64,000 nt of DNA, taken from the NCBI GenBank assembly GCA_030706745.1, contig JAUZNX010000006.1, forward strand, positions 140,998 through 204,997, given 5' to 3'. Positions 23,049 through 41,466 of the stretch are shown here, one piece after another. The position numbers and the translations under genes are program-made. The notes below the pieces were generated by a model. That model saw only the letters and a list, made by a program, of their open reading frames with translations. It was not told the origin of the DNA and did no database searches. Source of the DNA: Bacteroidota bacterium. GTDB lineage: Bacteria > Bacteroidota > Ignavibacteria > Palsa-1295. Position 1 is the stretch's first letter. Each line of letters begins with the position of its first letter.

Positions 23049-23194
23049 TAGTGGATAGTTGATAGTGGGTAGTGGACAGTTGAAATGCACAGAGTGGAGA
23101 TTGATCGATGAGAAGCGGATGCTGCCAATAGTATGGGCACTATCCATTTTCCTCTATTCACTATCCACTATTATCTACCCACTATCATCTACTG
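23048..23194. repeat. Long imperfect inverted repeat built from GTGGATAGT-type units (hairpin), copy 1
   Basis: Left arm gtagtggatagttgatagtgggtagtggacagttg pairs with right arm cactatccactattatctacccactatcatctactg. Related in sequence to 41350–41466. Confidence 0.7.
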
Positions 23195-34762: not shown

Positions 34763-36652
34763 ATGTACCTCTCTAATATTAAGCTCTGGAATTTCCGAAA
34801 GTACGGACGCGCGGGTCAAGAGTCAACGCTCGATCTTCGGAACCCCCACTTGAGTCTCGACTTCTCGAATGGGCTCAATGTTCTGATCGGTGAGAACGAC
34901 TCGGGGAAATCAGCTATCATTGATGCAATTAAGCTCACGCTCAAGACGCAAAGCTACGAGTGGTTGAGAATTGAGCGAGAGGATTTTTTCAATGACTCCG
35001 CCAAGCTGAGAATAGAATTAGAGTTCGACGGTTTTAAGGACATCGAAGCAAAGAACTTTACTAAATGGTTAGGATGGAAAGAGAAGACTACCGAGACCGG
35101 GTCTAAGGAGAAGGTGCCATACTTGCGCTTGGTTTACGAGGTACAGCGCAAACTGGAGGAGGGAAGAATATTACCATCTGACGTGAGGGCTGGCGTCGAT
35201 GACGAGTGTTATCTTCTCGATGCCGGCGCAAAAGAATACCTGAAAGTCACTTACCTCAAGCCATTGCGCGATGCCGAGAGCGACTTGACCCCAAAGAGGA
35301 ATTCAAGACTGTCACAAATTCTTGCGAGCCACGAGGCTTTTAAGGGCAAAGAAACAACTCATTTTTTGGTCCGTCTTTTCGAGAGATTCAATGATTCCAT
35401 CCTTGGATATTTTGAAGGCGTGGACGTTGGGACTGACGGTAGCGAAGCGCCATCCCAGGATCAAGAAGGTAAGAAGCTGAAGGACAAAGTCGATAGTCTG
35501 CTCAGTGAGATGTACGATGAATCGAAAGAATCTAACTTTGATGTAACTTCGAAGAAGGAAGTAAAGGAGATTCTTGAGAAGCTCGAGTTGAGCTTGAAAA
35601 ATGACTTGAACCCTGGGCTCGGCACCCTGAACCGACTTTTTGTTTCTTCTGAATTGCTTCACCTTGAGAAGAAGGATTGGACTGGGCTACGCCTCGGCCT
35701 CATCGAAGAACTCGAAGCTCACCTTCATCCTCAGGCTCAAATGCGTATCATTGCGGCACTCCGAGAGATAAGCGGTACTCAACTGATTCTCACCACGCAC
35801 AGTCCGAATATTGGTTCAAAGGTCAAGTTAAAAGAATTGATCTTGTGTAGTGGCGACAATGTCTTTCCGATGAAGGATGGTTGCACCAGACTCAAAAGCC
35901 CCGACTACACATTTCTTGAGAGATTTCTCGACGCAACGAAAGCAAATCTATTTTTCGCGAAAGGAGTCATCCTTGTCGAAGGGTGGGCAGAGGAAATTCT
36001 GATTCCGGCTCTCGCCAAGGCCATTGATTGCGACCTTACGAAGAAGGGTGTTTCCGTCGTTAATGTCGGGAACCTCGCCTTCTTGCGATATTCCAGCATC
36101 TTTCAAAGGCAGGCTCCTCCCCCCATGGAGATGCCTGTGGCCGTCGTAACCGACCTCGACATTATGCCTGAGGATGAAGGTGCTGACGCAGAAAGTAAAA
36201 CAACAACCAAGAAGGCGAAGTACGATGGCGTACCAGTAAAAACATTCGTCTCCCCGCATTGGACCTTGGAGTACTGTATTGCAAGATCGACTAAACTCCG
36301 AAGGACATTCTACAAGGCAATCTTGGAGGCATTGCGTGAGAAAAAGGAGGATGAAGGAATGAGCGAGACCGGATTGGCAGAATATGTCACGGCAATTACG
36401 AATATAGACGTGCACTTCAATGGTTGGAGTAAGAGTGAAGCTGAGATAGCCAGTTCGATCTATTCTCAAATTTTGGGAGAAGCCAAGGTGCTGGAATTGG
36501 CCAGGGGCAAGATTTCGAAGACTATCATTGCCCAGCATTTCGCCAAGCTCCTGGATGAAGGGGCAGTTGCGAAGACTGATATCGAGACCGACACTAATAT
36601 TTCTTATCTCATCGATGCCATAAAGTATGCCTGCCGCGTTAGTAGTCACTAA
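34763..36652 (+). CDS. gajA: OLD-family ATP-dependent endonuclease, Gabija GajA-like (ABC-type ATPase + TOPRIM)
   Basis: N-terminal IKLWNFRKY...GENDSGKSAIIDAI (Walker A), LIEELEAHLHPQAQ (Walker B/H-loop), TOPRIM GVILVEGWAEEILIPALA. Strong SD AAAGGAGA before ATG 34763. GC lower than its surroundings. Confidence 0.8.
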   Translation: MYLSNIKLWNFRKYGRAGQESTLDLRNPHLSLDFSNGLNVLIGENDSGKSAIIDAIKLTLKTQSYEWLRIEREDFFNDSAKLRIELEFDGFKDIEAKNFTKWLGWKEKTTETGSKEKVPYLRLVYEVQRKLEEGRILPSDVRAGVDDECYLLDAGAKEYLKVTYLKPLRDAESDLTPKRNSRLSQILASHEAFKGKETTHFLVRLFERFNDSILGYFEGVDVGTDGSEAPSQDQEGKKLKDKVDSLLSEMYDESKESNFDVTSKKEVKEILEKLELSLKNDLNPGLGTLNRLFVSSELLHLEKKDWTGLRLGLIEELEAHLHPQAQMRIIAALREISGTQLILTTHSPNIGSKVKLKELILCSGDNVFPMKDGCTRLKSPDYTFLERFLDATKANLFFAKGVILVEGWAEEILIPALAKAIDCDLTKKGVSVVNVGNLAFLRYSSIFQRQAPPPMEMPVAVVTDLDIMPEDEGADAESKTTTKKAKYDGVPVKTFVSPHWTLEYCIARSTKLRRTFYKAILEALREKKEDEGMSETGLAEYVTAITNIDVHFNGWSKSEAEIASSIYSQILGEAKVLELARGKISKTIIAQHFAKLLDEGAVAKTDIETDTNISYLIDAIKYACRVSSH

Positions 36653-38651
36653 CGGTGACATCGAATACGCCGAGGGTATTCTGTTGCCCGCCGGCATGAC
36701 GTTCGATGATGAACGTCGGGCCTTCATTCGCAATTTTGAAACCATAGACCTTCAGGCCGTTCCAGGAAGTGGCAAGACAACAGCGCTCCTTGCCAAACTG
36801 CTGATTATCGAGAAGCATCTGCCTCTGAATGACGGATCTGGGGTCCTGGTACTTTCGCACACAAACGCAGCAGTGGATGAGATCAAGAATGCAATTGGCA
36901 TCCACTGTCCGAAGCTATTCGCGTATCCTAACTACGTCGGCACAATACAGAGCTTCACAGATAAATTCCTTGCAATACCCTACGGACACAACTGTCTCGG
37001 AGTTAGATTTGACCGTGTCGATTCAGAAGCTTTTTCGGAGAGGCTTTGGAAGAACTTCCGTCTCGTGCAACAACGCGAAGATTTCGGAAGTCTCGGGAAG
37101 TGGTTCTATGGCATGCACATTGCGACCGCGAAAGAAATCGCCGGAGAGAATAAGCCAGAGGTTAGGCGCCTCTGCAATGCGTTGATCGAAGCGCACGTGA
37201 AAAATATTCGTTACGACTACAACGAGGAATGCTTTAGGAATGGGATTGATGGTAAAGCGCTCCTGAAGTCGAAGACCAATCCAAAATTTAATGCACTGCT
37301 GGCGATTACTCAAGAAACTTTCGCCGAGGGTTATCTTTCGTTTGATTACGCCTATATCCTTGCCAAGCATTATCTCATTCTTGTCCCTGAGCTTACCCCA
37401 ATTGTGAGAAAGCGATTCCCATACGTCTTCGTTGATGAGATGCAAGATATGGATCCCCACCAATACACCTTGTTAGAGACGCTTTTTGCACCTTCGGGGC
37501 CTCATCAACCCATTTATCAAAGGATCGGAGACAAGAACCAAGCGATATACGAGGGGCTTACCGGGGAGATTTGGCAGGATCGAGCGCCTGATCGAATACT
37601 CTCCCTAAAAGGGTCATATCGCTTGAGCAGTCAAGTCGCAAAAGTCGTGCAGCCATTCGCCCTCACTCCTATAGCAATAGATGGGCGGCGGGAGCTTCGT
37701 GTGCCAATTAAGCCTTGCTTGTTGGTTTATACCGAGCCTTCGCACGTGATTAATGAGTACATCCGAATTATCCGAACGCATGTCGACTCCGGGGCTATTC
37801 CATCCAATACAGCAAATGGGTTCCATGCAATCTGTTGGGTGACGAAAGAGAAAGAGACGGAAACGACACTCTCTAGATACTTTGCTGATTTCAAGCGTGT
37901 CAAACAAGAGTCAGGTTCAAATTATTATTGCCTTAGGGCTTACTTCGATGCGATGGATCCGGTAAGTCAGTGCGTGAGAGCAATACGTAGTCATCTCATC
38001 AACGCCATTCTGAAGGTGTTACGACTTGAAGATATACGCGATGAGAACAATAGATACTATACGCAAGCGCGCTTTCTTCGCCAATTGAATCAACTTGACC
38101 TCACGCGAGATACAAAATATTCGGACGAATTTAATTTTCAGCTCTTTCAATGGTGCAGTGCGGTGGCAAACGGGAAGACTACTGAGGCCCTGAGGGACCT
38201 GCGCATCTTCCTTCCTAATCTGTTGGGCTGGCTTGACAAGACTCTTACGAAAGCGGACGCGATCACATTTGTCAATGCAGACTCAGCATCGAGTCAATCG
38301 GTTGGGGAGAATACCTCCGAAAGTCGAGATGTAAACGTTGCCATCGAGCCATCGGGAGACATTAGGATTGAAGTGTCAAACGTTCACGCAGTAAAGGGAC
38401 ACACGCACACAGCAACGTTGTACATGGAGTCCTTTTACCAGAAAATGTATGAGTCATCCAGACTCCCCGGACCTTTCCTGAATGGCAGTGCTAAGATCAA
38501 AGGAACGTACCAGAATGAAACCGCAAGGTTGCTCTACGTAGGTTTCTCGCGTCCGACGCATCTGCTTTGCTTCGCGGTTCACAAGGAGCGATTTGAAGCT
38601 CATTTAAGTGCGATTGACAGAGATATTTGGGAAATCGTGGAGGTATCGTGA
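36627..38651 (+). CDS. gajB: UvrD-like superfamily-1 helicase, Gabija GajB-like. Alternative start ATG at 36696.
   Basis: Walker A AVPGSGKTTAL. Motif II VFVDEMQDMD. IGDKNQAIY, SYRLSSQV, VHAVKGHTHTATL, LYVGFSRPTHLL match the GajB/UvrD motif set. Overlaps gajA by 26 nt. Confidence 0.8.
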   Translation: MPAALVVTNGDIEYAEGILLPAGMTFDDERRAFIRNFETIDLQAVPGSGKTTALLAKLLIIEKHLPLNDGSGVLVLSHTNAAVDEIKNAIGIHCPKLFAYPNYVGTIQSFTDKFLAIPYGHNCLGVRFDRVDSEAFSERLWKNFRLVQQREDFGSLGKWFYGMHIATAKEIAGENKPEVRRLCNALIEAHVKNIRYDYNEECFRNGIDGKALLKSKTNPKFNALLAITQETFAEGYLSFDYAYILAKHYLILVPELTPIVRKRFPYVFVDEMQDMDPHQYTLLETLFAPSGPHQPIYQRIGDKNQAIYEGLTGEIWQDRAPDRILSLKGSYRLSSQVAKVVQPFALTPIAIDGRRELRVPIKPCLLVYTEPSHVINEYIRIIRTHVDSGAIPSNTANGFHAICWVTKEKETETTLSRYFADFKRVKQESGSNYYCLRAYFDAMDPVSQCVRAIRSHLINAILKVLRLEDIRDENNRYYTQARFLRQLNQLDLTRDTKYSDEFNFQLFQWCSAVANGKTTEALRDLRIFLPNLLGWLDKTLTKADAITFVNADSASSQSVGENTSESRDVNVAIEPSGDIRIEVSNVHAVKGHTHTATLYMESFYQKMYESSRLPGPFLNGSAKIKGTYQNETARLLYVGFSRPTHLLCFAVHKERFEAHLSAIDRDIWEIVEVS

Positions 38652-38660
38652 GGTGTGGGT

Positions 38661-38781
38661 AACTCGCGCTCAGGGTCGAGCGTCGCGGGGCTGGCGGGTC
38701 TTTGGAGCCTCAGCCATGCCCATGGTTGCTCATTGCAACGCTAGCAAACGAACAGGGTGGTGCTACCGGGAGTTCGGGCGC
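38661..38781. repeat. Direct repeat R1 (~120 nt) immediately after the gajB stop
   Basis: aactcgcgc..cgcggggctggcgggtctttggagcctcagccatgcc ... gctcattgcaacgctagcaaacgaacagggtggtgctaccgggagttcgggcgc repeated at 40398–40542. Confidence 0.85.
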
Positions 38782-38809
38782 GTGGAGGCAAGTAGGGTGT
38801 AGCTCGTCT

Positions 38810-40096
38810 CTACGTGATGCTTCCAGCGGGATAGAGCGCGGGAAAGATATACGGGACTGCTTTGATCGGAAAAGTTAGCCGAAGCGCGCCAAGCGGAGTG
38901 AGTGAAGTGACAAGTTCCAGTTTGGTGAGAGCCTGCGTAATTCTCCTTGCGGAGCGATCCGATGTACCAGTCAGCCTGGCTACCTCGCTTCGCGGAAGTT
39001 CTCCTCTTAAGAAAATCTCCGTAAGAAGATATTTCGCGCTCGTGTCGAGCACTCCTTGCAACGCAAGAAGTTCGACATATTGCGTAAGACGATCGAGCAT
39101 CGCGTTGGTCTCGAGCAGACCAGACATAAAGTTCACTTGATCGATTGCAACATCGAGCAAAAAATCGACGAAGTCATCCAGTCCGCGTTGCGAGAGATTG
39201 CCGCGTCCATCATAATTGTTGTAACGGGGTGCATCTGCGGCCTCCAGTGCTTTATAGTATTCCTCCCTTTTCCGCGCAATACCGCGGGAGAGCGACCACA
39301 GCCCATTACTATCCAGATCTGCCCTCATAAAATAGAGGTGCGTAAAAAGCCTGACAACCCGTCCATTCCCATCTAAGAAGGGATGGATCCACGCGAGTCG
39401 GTGATGTGCTGCAATAGCGGCGATAATTCTCTTCACGGAGCCGAGAGGAGTTGGAGAATAGACTTCGTGAAATCGCTCCATGAACTGAGGGATCGAGGAG
39501 TGCTGCGGCGGAACATGCTTGCCGACTTGCACATCATCCCGTCTAAATTTGCCTGGCACGACTTTCAGCACGTTGCCGGCAGTCGCACGGACTAATTTGA
39601 ATTCTTCCGGGAGCTTATCGTAAAAGCTTTTGTGCATGCTCAGGAGAAACTCCGGTGACGCAACATCGACATCTGAAGAATCTCGTAGCTCTCGCTCAAA
39701 CTGTTCCTGCACCTCGATATGTGCTCGCCCTTCAATCTGCAACGCCTTCTTGCGAGGCTCCGCAGAGTAATCGTTCTTTTGTGCGCGCTCGAGGTCCAAT
39801 GGATGCGTGACATTTCCCTCGATGAGATTGGAATAATAGCTATTCATCAGCCGAAGGAGCTGAGAGGTCTGACGCTGGGTGATGGGATGGAGTTTGCCCG
39901 AAAGCTGTTGCGATCGTTTGAGGAGTTCAACCGCTTTCTCTTCGAGACTTGGGCGGGCGGGCCACATCGGCTCCATTTGAGAGATTCCGCTGTACATGGG
40001 CATCACAGCCTTCCGGGCCACTGATTTCCCATTTAGCTTGGCACTTTTGGCCGACTTATTGGCCGACTTATTGGCCGACTTATTGGCCGACTTCAT
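38810..40096 (-). CDS. Fic family protein (Fic domain + C-terminal winged-helix) with a KSAN-repeat N-terminus encoded by a 12-nt tandem repeat. Alternative starts at internal Met residues (MPMYSG...).
   Basis: Fic motif HPFLDGNGRVVRL. ATG at 40096 confirmed. 428 aa. Confidence 0.8.
   Translation of the reverse strand: MKSANKSANKSANKSAKSAKLNGKSVARKAVMPMYSGISQMEPMWPARPSLEEKAVELLKRSQQLSGKLHPITQRQTSQLLRLMNSYYSNLIEGNVTHPLDLERAQKNDYSAEPRKKALQIEGRAHIEVQEQFERELRDSSDVDVASPEFLLSMHKSFYDKLPEEFKLVRATAGNVLKVVPGKFRRDDVQVGKHVPPQHSSIPQFMERFHEVYSPTPLGSVKRIIAAIAAHHRLAWIHPFLDGNGRVVRLFTHLYFMRADLDSNGLWSLSRGIARKREEYYKALEAADAPRYNNYDGRGNLSQRGLDDFVDFLLDVAIDQVNFMSGLLETNAMLDRLTQYVELLALQGVLDTSAKYLLTEIFLRGELPRSEVARLTGTSDRSARRITQALTKLELVTSLTPLGALRLTFPIKAVPYIFPALYPAGSIT
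40047..40093. repeat. 12-nt tandem repeat (TTGGCCGACTTA, about 4 copies) lying in-frame in the first codons of the Fic gene
   Basis: Read directly. Encodes (KSAN)n. Confidence 0.9.
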
Positions 40097-40232
40097 AATA
40101 AGTTATAATCCTCATAAATTAGCAAGATTAGCCGAATACGAACAGGAAACTTCAATCCCGGCAATCGAATTCCCGAGAAGTTGGACCGTTATTTTGGCCG
40201 AGTTGTGAGGTGGACCTTTGAGTGGATCTAAA

Positions 40233-40285
40233 GGACATAAACCATTGGAACTCTATTACGTTTGGCTTTGCCAAACGTAATAGAG
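40233..40285. repeat. Perfect palindrome: 25-bp stem with 3-nt loop (ccattggaactctattacgtttggc ttt gccaaacgtaatagagttccaatgg)
   Basis: Read directly, no mismatches. Confidence 0.9.
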
Positions 40286-40299
40286 TTCCAATGGTAGCA

Positions 40300-40335
40300 G
40301 AAGCACATGCAAGCGGCTGTTCGCTTAAGCGAACA
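40300..40335. repeat. Perfect 36-nt palindrome (gcaagcggctgttcgctt|aagcgaacagccgcttgc)
   Basis: Read directly, no mismatches. 14 nt downstream of the first palindrome. Confidence 0.9.
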
Positions 40336-40397
40336 GCCGCTTGCAGCAAAGTGATTCCAGCTTAGGGAATAGCGAAGAGTGAAACTTCTCAGTGTTC

Positions 40398-40542
40398 GCG
40401 TGGGCCGAACTCGCGCCCCGGGTCACATCGGCGCGGGGGCTGGCGGGTCTTTGGAGCCTCAGCCATGCCACCAATAGCATGATAGGTCATCCCTAATTGC
40501 TCATTGCAACGCTGGCAAACGAACAGGGTGGTGCTACCGGGA
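40398..40542. repeat. Direct repeat R2 (~145 nt, with an approximately 22-nt internal insertion relative to R1), 50 nt upstream of the AbrB-like gene
   Basis: Same sequence blocks as R1. Confidence 0.85.
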
Positions 40543-40591
40543 GTTCGGGCGCCTTCAACGAATGTGGTCTCGCTCGTGTTATGGAATCACT

Positions 40592-40810
40592 ATGGACCGC
40601 ATTGATTTTGAAGGCACGGTAGAGGGCGATGGCATCATCCGCATCCCCGCTGAGTATAAGCGCGAGCTTGTGAAGGGCGAGACGGTGCATGTATCGCTCT
40701 CCGTTGGTAAGCGCCGCACCCGCCTTGTCGATCGTATGATCAATCATCCCGTTCCCGTCGATGAGTTCACACCCTTGACGCGCGAAGAGATATACGACCG
40801 TACGATTTGA
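40592..40810 (+). CDS. AbrB/MazE/SpoVT-fold (swapped-hairpin) DNA-binding protein, orphan
   Basis: MDRIDFEGTVEGDGIIRIPAEYKRELVKGETVHVSL resembles the AbrB/MazE N-terminal domain. About 72 aa from the internal ATG. Confidence 0.55.
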   Translation: MDRIDFEGTVEGDGIIRIPAEYKRELVKGETVHVSLSVGKRRTRLVDRMINHPVPVDEFTPLTREEIYDRTI

Positions 40811-41081
40811 TCTTCCTCGACTCTACTCCGAAGACATGCAGAATGGCATGCGCATCCGCAATCGGATGACCGTTCGGAATCCGTTTGCGTAGTCCTGTGC
40901 GCTTCTGCGCGCAAGCTAAAGCATGCGCTACACTGGAATTATTGCGCCCAATCCCCCGTTTCCCGCCAGTTCAAAAAGTTTACATAACAGCTCCAACGAG
41001 GAGCAAGCTGTCCGGCGGCTTTGATAGCGCGAGGTTCCGGGCAGATGTTCAATTTCACGGCGCTATACGACATTACTTATA

Positions 41082-41349
<268 letters not shown>

Positions 41350-41351
<2 letters not shown>

Positions 41352-41466
41352 TGGATAGTTGATAGTGGAGAGTGGATAGTTCTACTCGTCTGCTATCTTC
41401 TTTGTGGCATGGCCGCATGAACGGCCCTGCACACTATCCACTTTCCACTATACACTATCCACTATA
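41350..41466 (+). promoter_or_regulatory. rpsO–pnp intergenic long hairpin (about 31-bp imperfect stem of GTGGATAGT-type units, about 54-nt loop containing a GGCCG/CGGCC sub-hairpin) ending at the pnp ATG
   Basis: Left arm agtggatagttgatagtggagagtggatagtt pairs with right arm cactatccactttccactatacactatccactata. Confidence 0.7.

Follow-up and report, generated by a model that had tools for sequence, protein, structure and literature searches.

The 64,000-nucleotide (nt) stretch of a Bacteroidota bacterium genome analysed here (GenBank assembly GCA_030706745.1, contig JAUZNX010000006.1; hereafter, the window) carries an in-frame tandem repeat of a 12-nt unit at the 5' end of a gene coding for a Fic protein. 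Judging from sequence comparison and structure models, this repeat is probably the proximal part of a putative autoregulatory operator array, recognised by the winged helix of the Fic protein itself. Such an operator would account for the presence of a perfect 12-nt repeat at the start of a Fic gene, and it is supported by the conservation of the unit as DNA in many relatives, by the fixed architecture of the arrays upstream of Fic genes, and by the variation of the unit core together with the residues with which the adjacent Fic product would read DNA.

The array is the top-scoring one of the window in Tandem Repeats Finder (TRF; positions 40043-40093, period 12, 4.3 copies, 97% matches, score 95). 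A search for exact and mismatched copies found TTGGCCGACTTA without error at 40047, 40059 and 40071, and TTGGCCGACTTC, with one mismatch, at 40083. Read on the minus strand, the ATG (40096-40094) is followed by AAG TCG GCC AAT three times, by AAG TCG GCC AAA, and then by the degenerate unit AGTGCCAAGCTA, in frame with the 428-aa Fic open reading frame (ORF); given this ATG, the four clear units are codons 2-17 (KSAN KSAN KSAN KSAK). TRF, exact search and reading frame thus bear out the in-frame repeat reported by the initial annotation. Since a shuffled window is expected to hold only about 3.8 single 12-mers with up to two mismatches, and these scattered, four copies in register are far beyond chance. 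The unit also recurs upstream (Table 1). A distal cluster lies in non-coding DNA, 99-111 nt upstream of the first proximal unit, where relatives have a clean pair, and a degenerate middle pair lies within an AT-rich stretch directly upstream of ATG 40096, a GGCTAAT-like pair recurring in relatives. The AT-rich stretch is the probable promoter region. The whole window yielded neither Rfam families at gathering thresholds nor tRNA or tmRNA genes, hence no known RNA family and no att site of the tRNA type.

The comparison with relatives covered 170 homologous loci (41-75% identity) from genome and metagenome collections, belonging to Bacteroidota, Ignavibacteriota/Kapabacteria, Balneolales, Verrucomicrobiales, Desulfobacterota and Chromatiaceae. 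The closest Fic relatives, 72-74% identical, come from Candidatus Kapaibacterium, Ignavibacteriota and Bacteroidota metagenome-assembled genomes (MAGs), and the metagenome scan yielded a single further close relative (L091, 73%) and no other allele of the window's Fic gene. In the same place as the window array, the relatives have two or three units of the form (A/T)C(G/C)GCCAA(A) at exactly 12-nt spacing, with further copies, usually a pair, in non-coding DNA about 85-110 nt upstream. What the unit encodes differs from locus to locus. It reads K-S-A-K in the window, L001, L002 and L019, S-R-P-N or T-R-P-K in L009, L012 and L013, and T-G-Q-M in L015. In L033 and L017 the array ends directly before the ATG and is non-coding; in L094 it contains in-frame stops and is followed by GGAGGT-N5-ATG; and in L025/L036 a variant unit, TCGGCA, also with in-frame stops, lies ahead of ATG-TAC. 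The occurrence of one unit in three frames and in non-coding positions implies that selection acts on the DNA and not on the peptide.

The family-wide architecture of the arrays is strict. Pairs of C[GC]GCCAA at most 30 nt apart, sought in the first 90 loci, which total about 550 kb, occur at Fic 5' ends and are always 12 nt apart, the sole exception being a pair in L036, outside a Fic 5' end, with 14-nt spacing. When exact direct repeats of at least 9 nt were counted over the 350 nt that precede the conserved MEP residues in 140 non-identical loci, 128 had a period of 12 (in 87 of the loci), against nine for all other periods between 8 and 16; the control regions yielded one period-12 repeat far upstream, none in either region inside the gene, and three downstream. 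Core matches lie on the gene strand 430 times and on the opposite strand 17 times, with spacings of 12 (210 times), 24 (15) and 36 nt (3). The motif is therefore kept in one position and orientation relative to the Fic start of orthologues and is nearly absent from controls. Units are arranged as a distal and a proximal cluster, and their number goes from two in a cluster up to 21 per locus (L057). The gap between the last distal and the first proximal unit takes values of 57, 68, 77-80, 87-92, 98-101 and 109 bp, with a periodicity of 10.75 bp (Rayleigh R 0.70); after dereplication to 13 lineages with less than 60% identity, R was 0.73, a value reached by 17 of 5000 jittered nulls. As this ladder matches the DNA helical repeat, proteins bound to the two clusters would interact with each other, or act together with RNA polymerase, on a single side of the double helix, and the helical phasing is consistent with action on duplex DNA.

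Two further observations concern these arrays. The longest ones are found in L057, whose 21 units, of AATAACCACCGGAAT type, lie some 250 nt upstream of Fic, in L037 (about six units), and in L066 and L164 (five in a row each); these loci would be the best places to look for real within-population variation in copy number. In the Bacteroidia relatives, L086/L088 among them, the proximal cluster ends, some 40 nt upstream of the Fic ATG, in a unit that directly adjoins a TAnnTTTG-like box (TACATTTG); the box ends about 6 nt before the ATG, an arrangement that suggests promoter occlusion and a near-leaderless mRNA.

The repeat core varies across the family together with residues 381-385 in helix 3 of the adjacent Fic product's winged helix-turn-helix (wHTH), that is, with the residues that would read DNA. 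In the window these residues are RSARR. Proteins with Rx[A/S]RR go with the core CGGCCA in 14 of 15 loci of several subclades (the exception, L109, has CCGGACA), RTAAR with CCGCCAA, Rx[GA]R[D/M/I/L/N/T/V] with ATCGGCA, and RT[GA][NT]x with CCCGCAA; RTAR[S/A] is paired with ACCGG(C/A)AA in five of six loci, and KTxKx, in one subclade, with CGGAA(T/C) in all but two. The pairing of Rx[A/S]RR with CGGCCA recurs in separate lineages, the association having been computed ignoring kinship.

In agreement with this role, the Fic protein is, as far as sequence and modelling tell, a class II Fic AMPylase with a wHTH domain at its C terminus, of the SoFic/CccR/CbFic2 type, with AMPylation and promoter binding as its predicted activities. 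Its sequence begins MKSANKSANKSANKSAKSAKLNG (MKSANKSANKSANKSAKSAKLNGKSVARKAVMPMYSGISQMEP) and matches Pfam PF02661 (E 3.8e-16) and, over residues 55-399, the PADLOC model of the single-gene anti-phage system SoFic (PDLC03963, E 8.4e-36). The catalytic motif HPFLDGNGRVVR conforms to HxFx(D/E)GNGRxxR. Assignment to class II follows from an inhibitory motif, defined as (S/T)xxxE(G/N) in PMC9755527, which lies on the N-terminal side of the Fic core and within one chain with it, with S89 and E93 invariant among the aligned homologues. The AlphaFold2 (AF2) model has a pLDDT of 89.7, with values under 50 only at residues 1-28, predicted to be disordered, and 426-428; its C-terminal region comprises helices (354-392) and strands (405-407). 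The top full-length matches found by Foldseek in the PDB (380-404 aligned columns) are SoFic (3EQX), CccR (7XUX; target-normalised TM 0.82) and CbFic2 (8CIL).

We therefore envisage a bipartite operator, composed of 12-bp sites that follow each other head to tail and have TCGGCCAA as their core, of which the window repeat would be the promoter-proximal half. The C-terminal winged helix of the adjacent Fic protein would be the likeliest binder, because the core co-varies with its helix 3 and because the protein is structurally homologous to CccR and SoFic, which bind their own promoters. Fic molecules might occupy the units cooperatively, and the distal and proximal clusters might communicate across the promoter, either in a repression loop or by sandwiching RNA polymerase; a larger number of units would entail tighter or more cooperative repression. 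The outcome would be negative autoregulation of a potentially toxic AMPylase/defence gene. In the clade of the window, where the proximal array lies downstream of a conserved ATG, the same DNA probably also encodes a disordered tail rich in Lys, Ser and Ala (residues 1-28), and gain or loss of units by slippage over evolutionary time would tune the array.

Several points weigh against this operator. The association between helix and core is partly confounded by shared ancestry. The site geometry differs in the characterised relatives (inverted in CccR, of mixed orientation in SoFic), it is not obvious how a Fic dimer with two-fold symmetry would fit sites arranged head to tail, and 12 bp do not make up a whole number of helical turns. 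A sigma-70 scan of positions 38600-41100 found no minus-strand promoter upstream of Fic, with a consensus that may not fit this lineage. Finally, another factor, co-transferring or broadly conserved, could in principle be the binder.

Fic AMPylases with a winged helix are emerging as toxins, as effectors and as single-gene systems against phages, and the means by which their dangerous activity is restrained are understood only in part: autorepression has so far been shown for CccR, and promoter binding, without a mapped site, for SoFic. Our comparison yields a candidate operator for a whole subfamily, specified by a unit sequence, a 12-bp period, phased clusters and a helix-to-motif code; this code predicts specificity swaps and could be used to build orthogonal repressor/operator pairs, and the varying unit number offers a natural series in which to study the effect of the number of sites on expression of a defence toxin. 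It is also a warning that what looks like an in-frame coding repeat at the start of a gene can be a set of regulatory sites. More speculatively, the multi-phylum subfamily of SoFic/CccR-like Fic proteins might share a previously undescribed operator whose two helically phased clusters of 2-21 slippage-tuned 12-bp units not only mediate autorepression but also serve as a DNA scaffold setting the oligomeric and catalytic state, as for CbFic2, and which in the clade of the window has been captured into coding sequence; we hold this wider proposal only tentatively and would sooner expect part of it to fail.

The initial annotation had seen in the repeat a candidate contingency (phase-variable) locus controlling Fic. 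On such a reading, frequent slippage within populations would vary the (KSAN)n tail, or the spacing between promoter and start, and hence Fic activity or expression from cell to cell. Several of its premises are sound. The repeat tract lies at the coding 5' end and comprises three perfect units and a near-perfect one, and a four-codon unit can indeed change in number without frameshift, as the intact ORFs of L009 and L012 illustrate. The comparison of unit number among strains that it called for gave a divided answer. Number differs among relatives: L009/L010 (two units) and L012 (three) are exactly one AAGTCGGCCAAA unit apart at 98.7% gene identity, L086 and L088 (95.8% identical) have three and four proximal units, the proximal array ranges from two to four units within the clade, and the family-wide span is the one given above. 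By contrast, number is uniform among the four assemblies of the window organism. All four contigs/MAGs encode the exact 428-aa protein (identity of protein, at consensus level), which implies one copy number across them and no repeat-number polymorphism within the organism at that level; the window sequence is identical to contig JAUZOI010000007.1 of GCA_030706525.1, a Bacteroidota bacterium MAG. Likewise, an allele assembled four times independently (L003, L004, L005 and L011) has a single copy number, several other alleles assembled independently two to four times (L027/L106-108 among them) have identical arrays, and a unit difference is seen in just two of about 12 near-identical but non-identical pairs.

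Other features fit slippage switching no better. A unit whose length is a multiple of three always keeps the frame, which leaves no ON/OFF switching by frameshift, and four copies of a 12-mer are a short tract beside classical contingency loci. The recurrence of the unit outside the tandem array, in the upstream cluster, in three frames and in non-coding positions, and the conservation of its sequence, orientation, period and phased second cluster across phyla are the signature of a binding site rather than of a neutral slippage tract. As all four assemblies encode the identical protein, phase variation is unsupported, and we consider the contingency locus improbable: the unit behaves as a conserved cis-element, with slippage drift tuning the array over evolution, and rapid switching is unsupported.

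That the operator might overlap coding sequence raises the matter of where translation starts. In the close clade (L001, L002, L003, L006, L008, L009, L013 and L019), an ATG or GTG recurs at a matching place just 5' of the array, and from it the reading frame runs open through the array into the Fic core, though two subclades differ in frame. Neither L001 nor L091 has another canonical start before the conserved Tyr is reached from that upstream ATG, and the sequence is AT-rich and promoter-like upstream of ATG 40096 and GC-rich from the array to M32. Most family members (about 400-405 aa) start about 10 residues ahead of the conserved QMEP; against translation of the array, starts in this family-typical position follow right after it in the window, L019 (GTG-EFY), L006 (TTG-Y), L009 and L013. 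The internal start (MPMYSG) that the initial annotation had proposed as an option thus exists, as M32 or M34, and leaves the start ambiguous with ATG 40096. Exact matches were found neither for variants with one, two, four or five KSAN units nor for forms starting at M32 or M34, in a protein collection that also lacks the actual 428-aa protein. On balance, the comparison of sequences makes it likely that the array is translated from ATG 40096. The units are DNA sites whether or not they are translated; if they are, they have a double role.

Translation would be required if the repeat were selected as protein, with (KSAN)n serving as a basic disordered tail, for instance for non-specific affinity to nucleic acids, and the DNA repeat merely encoding it. 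The constant ATG or GTG ahead of an open frame in the close clade, the lack of another canonical start in L001 and L091 and the predicted disorder of residues 1-28 fit this idea, as do the N-termini of the MKK(S/A)... type in L009, L013 and P0006, kept as peptide despite DNA changes; KSAK-like N-terminal tails also occur in the nearest homologues P0001 (MKSAKKSARKSAK...), P0002, P0003, P0007 and P0009. By contrast, one DNA unit encodes the unrelated peptides KSAK, SRPN and TGQM, it lies outside any ORF in L094, L033, L017 and L025/L036, extra copies occupy non-coding DNA about 100 nt upstream, and most family members lack the tail altogether. KSAN as a selected peptide repeat was rejected because of the three-frame and non-coding occurrences, and selection at the level of the protein is, overall, very unlikely; the tail may well be translated here, yet it does not explain why the unit is conserved.

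Equally slim are the chances of an RNA-level element, in which units in the mRNA leader or early coding region would bind a protein or pair GGCC:GGCC to control translation or stability. In the clade of the window the proximal array is probably transcribed, being downstream of the AT-rich putative promoter and of the ATG, and the quasi-palindromic core (TCGGCCAA versus TTGGCCGA), as read in the sequence, would allow copies to pair. However, the variant cores CGGAAT, CCCGCAA and ATCGGCA of other clades are not self-complementary, the 10.75-bp ladder between clusters is a property of double-stranded DNA, the Rfam scan of the window is empty, and in Bacteroidia the proximal array, upstream of the TAnnTTTG-like box near the ATG, is probably not transcribed at all. 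Least probable of all is that the units serve another DNA transaction, as arm-type sites for a recombinase, as iterons or partition sites belonging to a mobile cassette, or as sites for a host regulator. In favour of this, an approximately 120-nt direct repeat brackets the Fic cassette, the cassette is found in many unrelated genomic contexts, and two direct-repeat clusters around a promoter recall the parC and iteron regions of plasmids. Against it, the cassette is not accompanied by a recombinase, Rep or Par gene in the loci examined, and the arrays always keep the same position and orientation to the Fic start and co-vary with Fic's own wHTH helix.

Together with a complete Gabija system, in which GajA (629 aa) and GajB (674 aa) overlap by 26 nt, the putatively autoregulated Fic gene makes up a small defence island, flanked by obgE/an extracytoplasmic function (ECF)-type sigma factor on one side and by rpsO-pnp on the other; on the flank of Fic away from Gabija lie a 72-aa ORF, rpsO and pnp. 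The two copies of the direct repeat, made of blocks 98-100% identical, bracket the 1.6-kb Fic cassette exactly and occur nowhere else in the window, which suggests insertion or duplication of the cassette through recombination at this repeat, in the space from gajB to the small ORF. The two ends of the repeat element are mutually complementary, and when folded as RNA the flanking element of about 145 nt is not distinctive (z-score -1.06).

Table 1. Features of the Fic locus and its surroundings, in window coordinates
Feature	Coordinates	Strand	Basis
Proximal array, four 12-nt direct-repeat units (AAGTCGGCCAAT x3, AAGTCGGCCAAA; core TCGGCCAA)	40046..40093	-	TRF and exact search
Degenerate fifth unit AGTGCCAAGCTA, 3' edge of the array	40034..40045	-	Sequence reading and indel noted by TRF
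Degenerate middle pair TTCGGCTAAT / CTTGCTAAT	40118..40136	-	Sequence reading; one-mismatch core match at -159
Distal cluster, AACTCGGCCAAA and degenerate second unit ATAACGGTCCA	40182..40205	-	Sequence reading, motif search
ATG opening the 428-aa ORF, immediately 5' of the array	40094..40096	-	ORF and clade comparison
Alternative starts M32 (40001-40003) and M34 (39995-39997), MPMYSGISQMEP	39995..40003	-	Family-typical position
Fic ORF, 428 aa, predicted class II Fic with C-terminal winged helix	38810..40096	-	ORF, Pfam, PADLOC, AF2, Foldseek
Inhibitory-helix motif S-N-L-I-E-G, residues 89-94	39815..39832	-	Matches (S/T)xxxE(G/N)
Fic catalytic motif HPFLDGNGRVVR, residues 238-249	39350..39385	-	Columns invariant in 53 homologues
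wHTH recognition helix codons, residues 380-392, DRSARRITQALTK	38921..38959	-	AF2 model, alignment
Gabija: GajA 34763-36652, GajB 36627-38651	34763..38651	+	PADLOC/Pfam; adjoins the Fic cassette
Direct repeat of about 120 nt, left copy	38661..38781	+	Repeat search; brackets the Fic cassette
Direct repeat of about 120 nt, right copy, with 22-nt insertion	40408..40552	+	Repeat search; brackets the Fic cassette

The surroundings of the cassette show other structures. Two perfect palindromes, at 40241-40295 (26-nt arms, 3-nt loop) and 40308-40345 (19-nt arms, no loop), sit between the right direct repeat and the distal unit pair; the former scores as a minus-strand terminator, and L009/L012 have other hairpins at the upstream cassette edge. 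These palindromes may be insulating terminators or elements of the REP (repetitive extragenic palindromic) kind. Between rpsO and pnp, the heptamer ATAGTGG and its complement, noted as CACTATC, occur in arrays that form 33-nt inverted repeats (41348-41380 / 41433-41465), with a second copy of the heptamer arrays at about 23.1 kb (23049-23080 / 23138-23192), and look like a recurring intergenic hairpin element; the corresponding region of E. coli contains the RNase III hairpin through which pnp is autoregulated. The 72-aa ORF (40592-40810, plus strand), which begins MDRIDFEGTVEGDGIIRIPAEY..., has no Pfam match and resembles an AbrB/SpoVT-type antitoxin, and the approximately 85 nt past its stop (40811-40895) translate to DLPRLYSEDMQNGMRIRNRMTVRNPFA followed by a stop, resembling the C-terminal end of a PIN/VapC toxin. 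Together, they may be a decayed vapBC module.

Among known systems, the closest to the putative Fic operator is that of CccR (YPK_0951; PDB 7XUX) of Yersinia pseudotuberculosis, a Fic toxin and autorepressor that acts on a pair of 10-bp boxes, inverted to each other and separated by 26 bp, in its own -35/-10 region (PMC9755527). Like the window Fic, of which it is the best full-length structural match, it combines a class II Fic core with a C-terminal (w)HTH domain, and it binds short boxes repeated in its own promoter and thereby represses it, as the window Fic would. The two proteins share about 18% sequence identity; CccR is an effector of the type VI secretion system, whereas the window gene lies in a defence island, and the window family has, in place of inverted 10-bp boxes, head-to-tail 12-bp units in two clusters 57-109 bp apart. 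CbFic2 adds a case in which DNA binding governs the catalytic state (PMC10628234). SoFic of Shewanella oneidensis (SO_4266, mloA) shares with the window protein the fold (3EQX) and the PADLOC model, at about 16-18% identity. Specific binding of the SoFic dimer has been shown for the 100 bp that lie upstream of the start of its gene, at a site that is not mapped (bioRxiv 10.64898/2026.07.09.737422). In the 300-bp S. oneidensis promoter fragment of Table S2 of that preprint we read, in the 140 bp upstream of SoFic, three direct (-107, -68, -28) and two inverted (-137, -57) copies of ATGTCGAT. They include a palindrome, ATGTCGAT-TGA-ATCGACAT, inside F1, the fragment best bound by SoFic; it is a candidate for the SoFic operator. 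Several upstream copies of one short motif are thus common to SoFic and the window family, but those of SoFic have mixed orientation and no 12-bp period, and SoFic has no N-terminal tail overlapping repeats.

In architecture, the Fic arrays resemble two systems of another kind. Plasmid R1 parC/ParR has two clusters of 11-bp repeats flanking a promoter, the same two-cluster layout as in the Fic arrays. Winged-helix proteins of the OmpR/PhoB/PhoP type are reported to bind head-to-tail on arrays of the 11-nt direct repeat DRu (PMC2275107). Short direct-repeat units of fixed period and variable number are common to all three, as would be cooperative binding and autoregulation in the case of the putative Fic operator. 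In the Fic arrays, by contrast, the period is 12 and not 11 bp, the binder would be a wHTH-bearing enzyme, no partition or phosphorelay role is implied, and in the clade of the window the array lies inside an ATG-initiated ORF. The simple-sequence contingency loci of Neisseria, Haemophilus, Helicobacter and Campylobacter share with the Fic array a tandem repeat at or upstream of the 5' end, a gene engaged in conflict with parasites and copy change by slippage; unlike them, the Fic array is built on a conserved, oriented, putatively protein-bound motif, has just four copies of a 12-nt unit, is invariant in four assemblies, and would be expected to tune expression quantitatively, not to switch it ON or OFF. 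Our literature search found no 12-bp or direct-repeat arrays described upstream of Fic genes, and the putative Fic operator array would be a new geometric form of a kind of autoregulation already known from CccR and suspected in SoFic.

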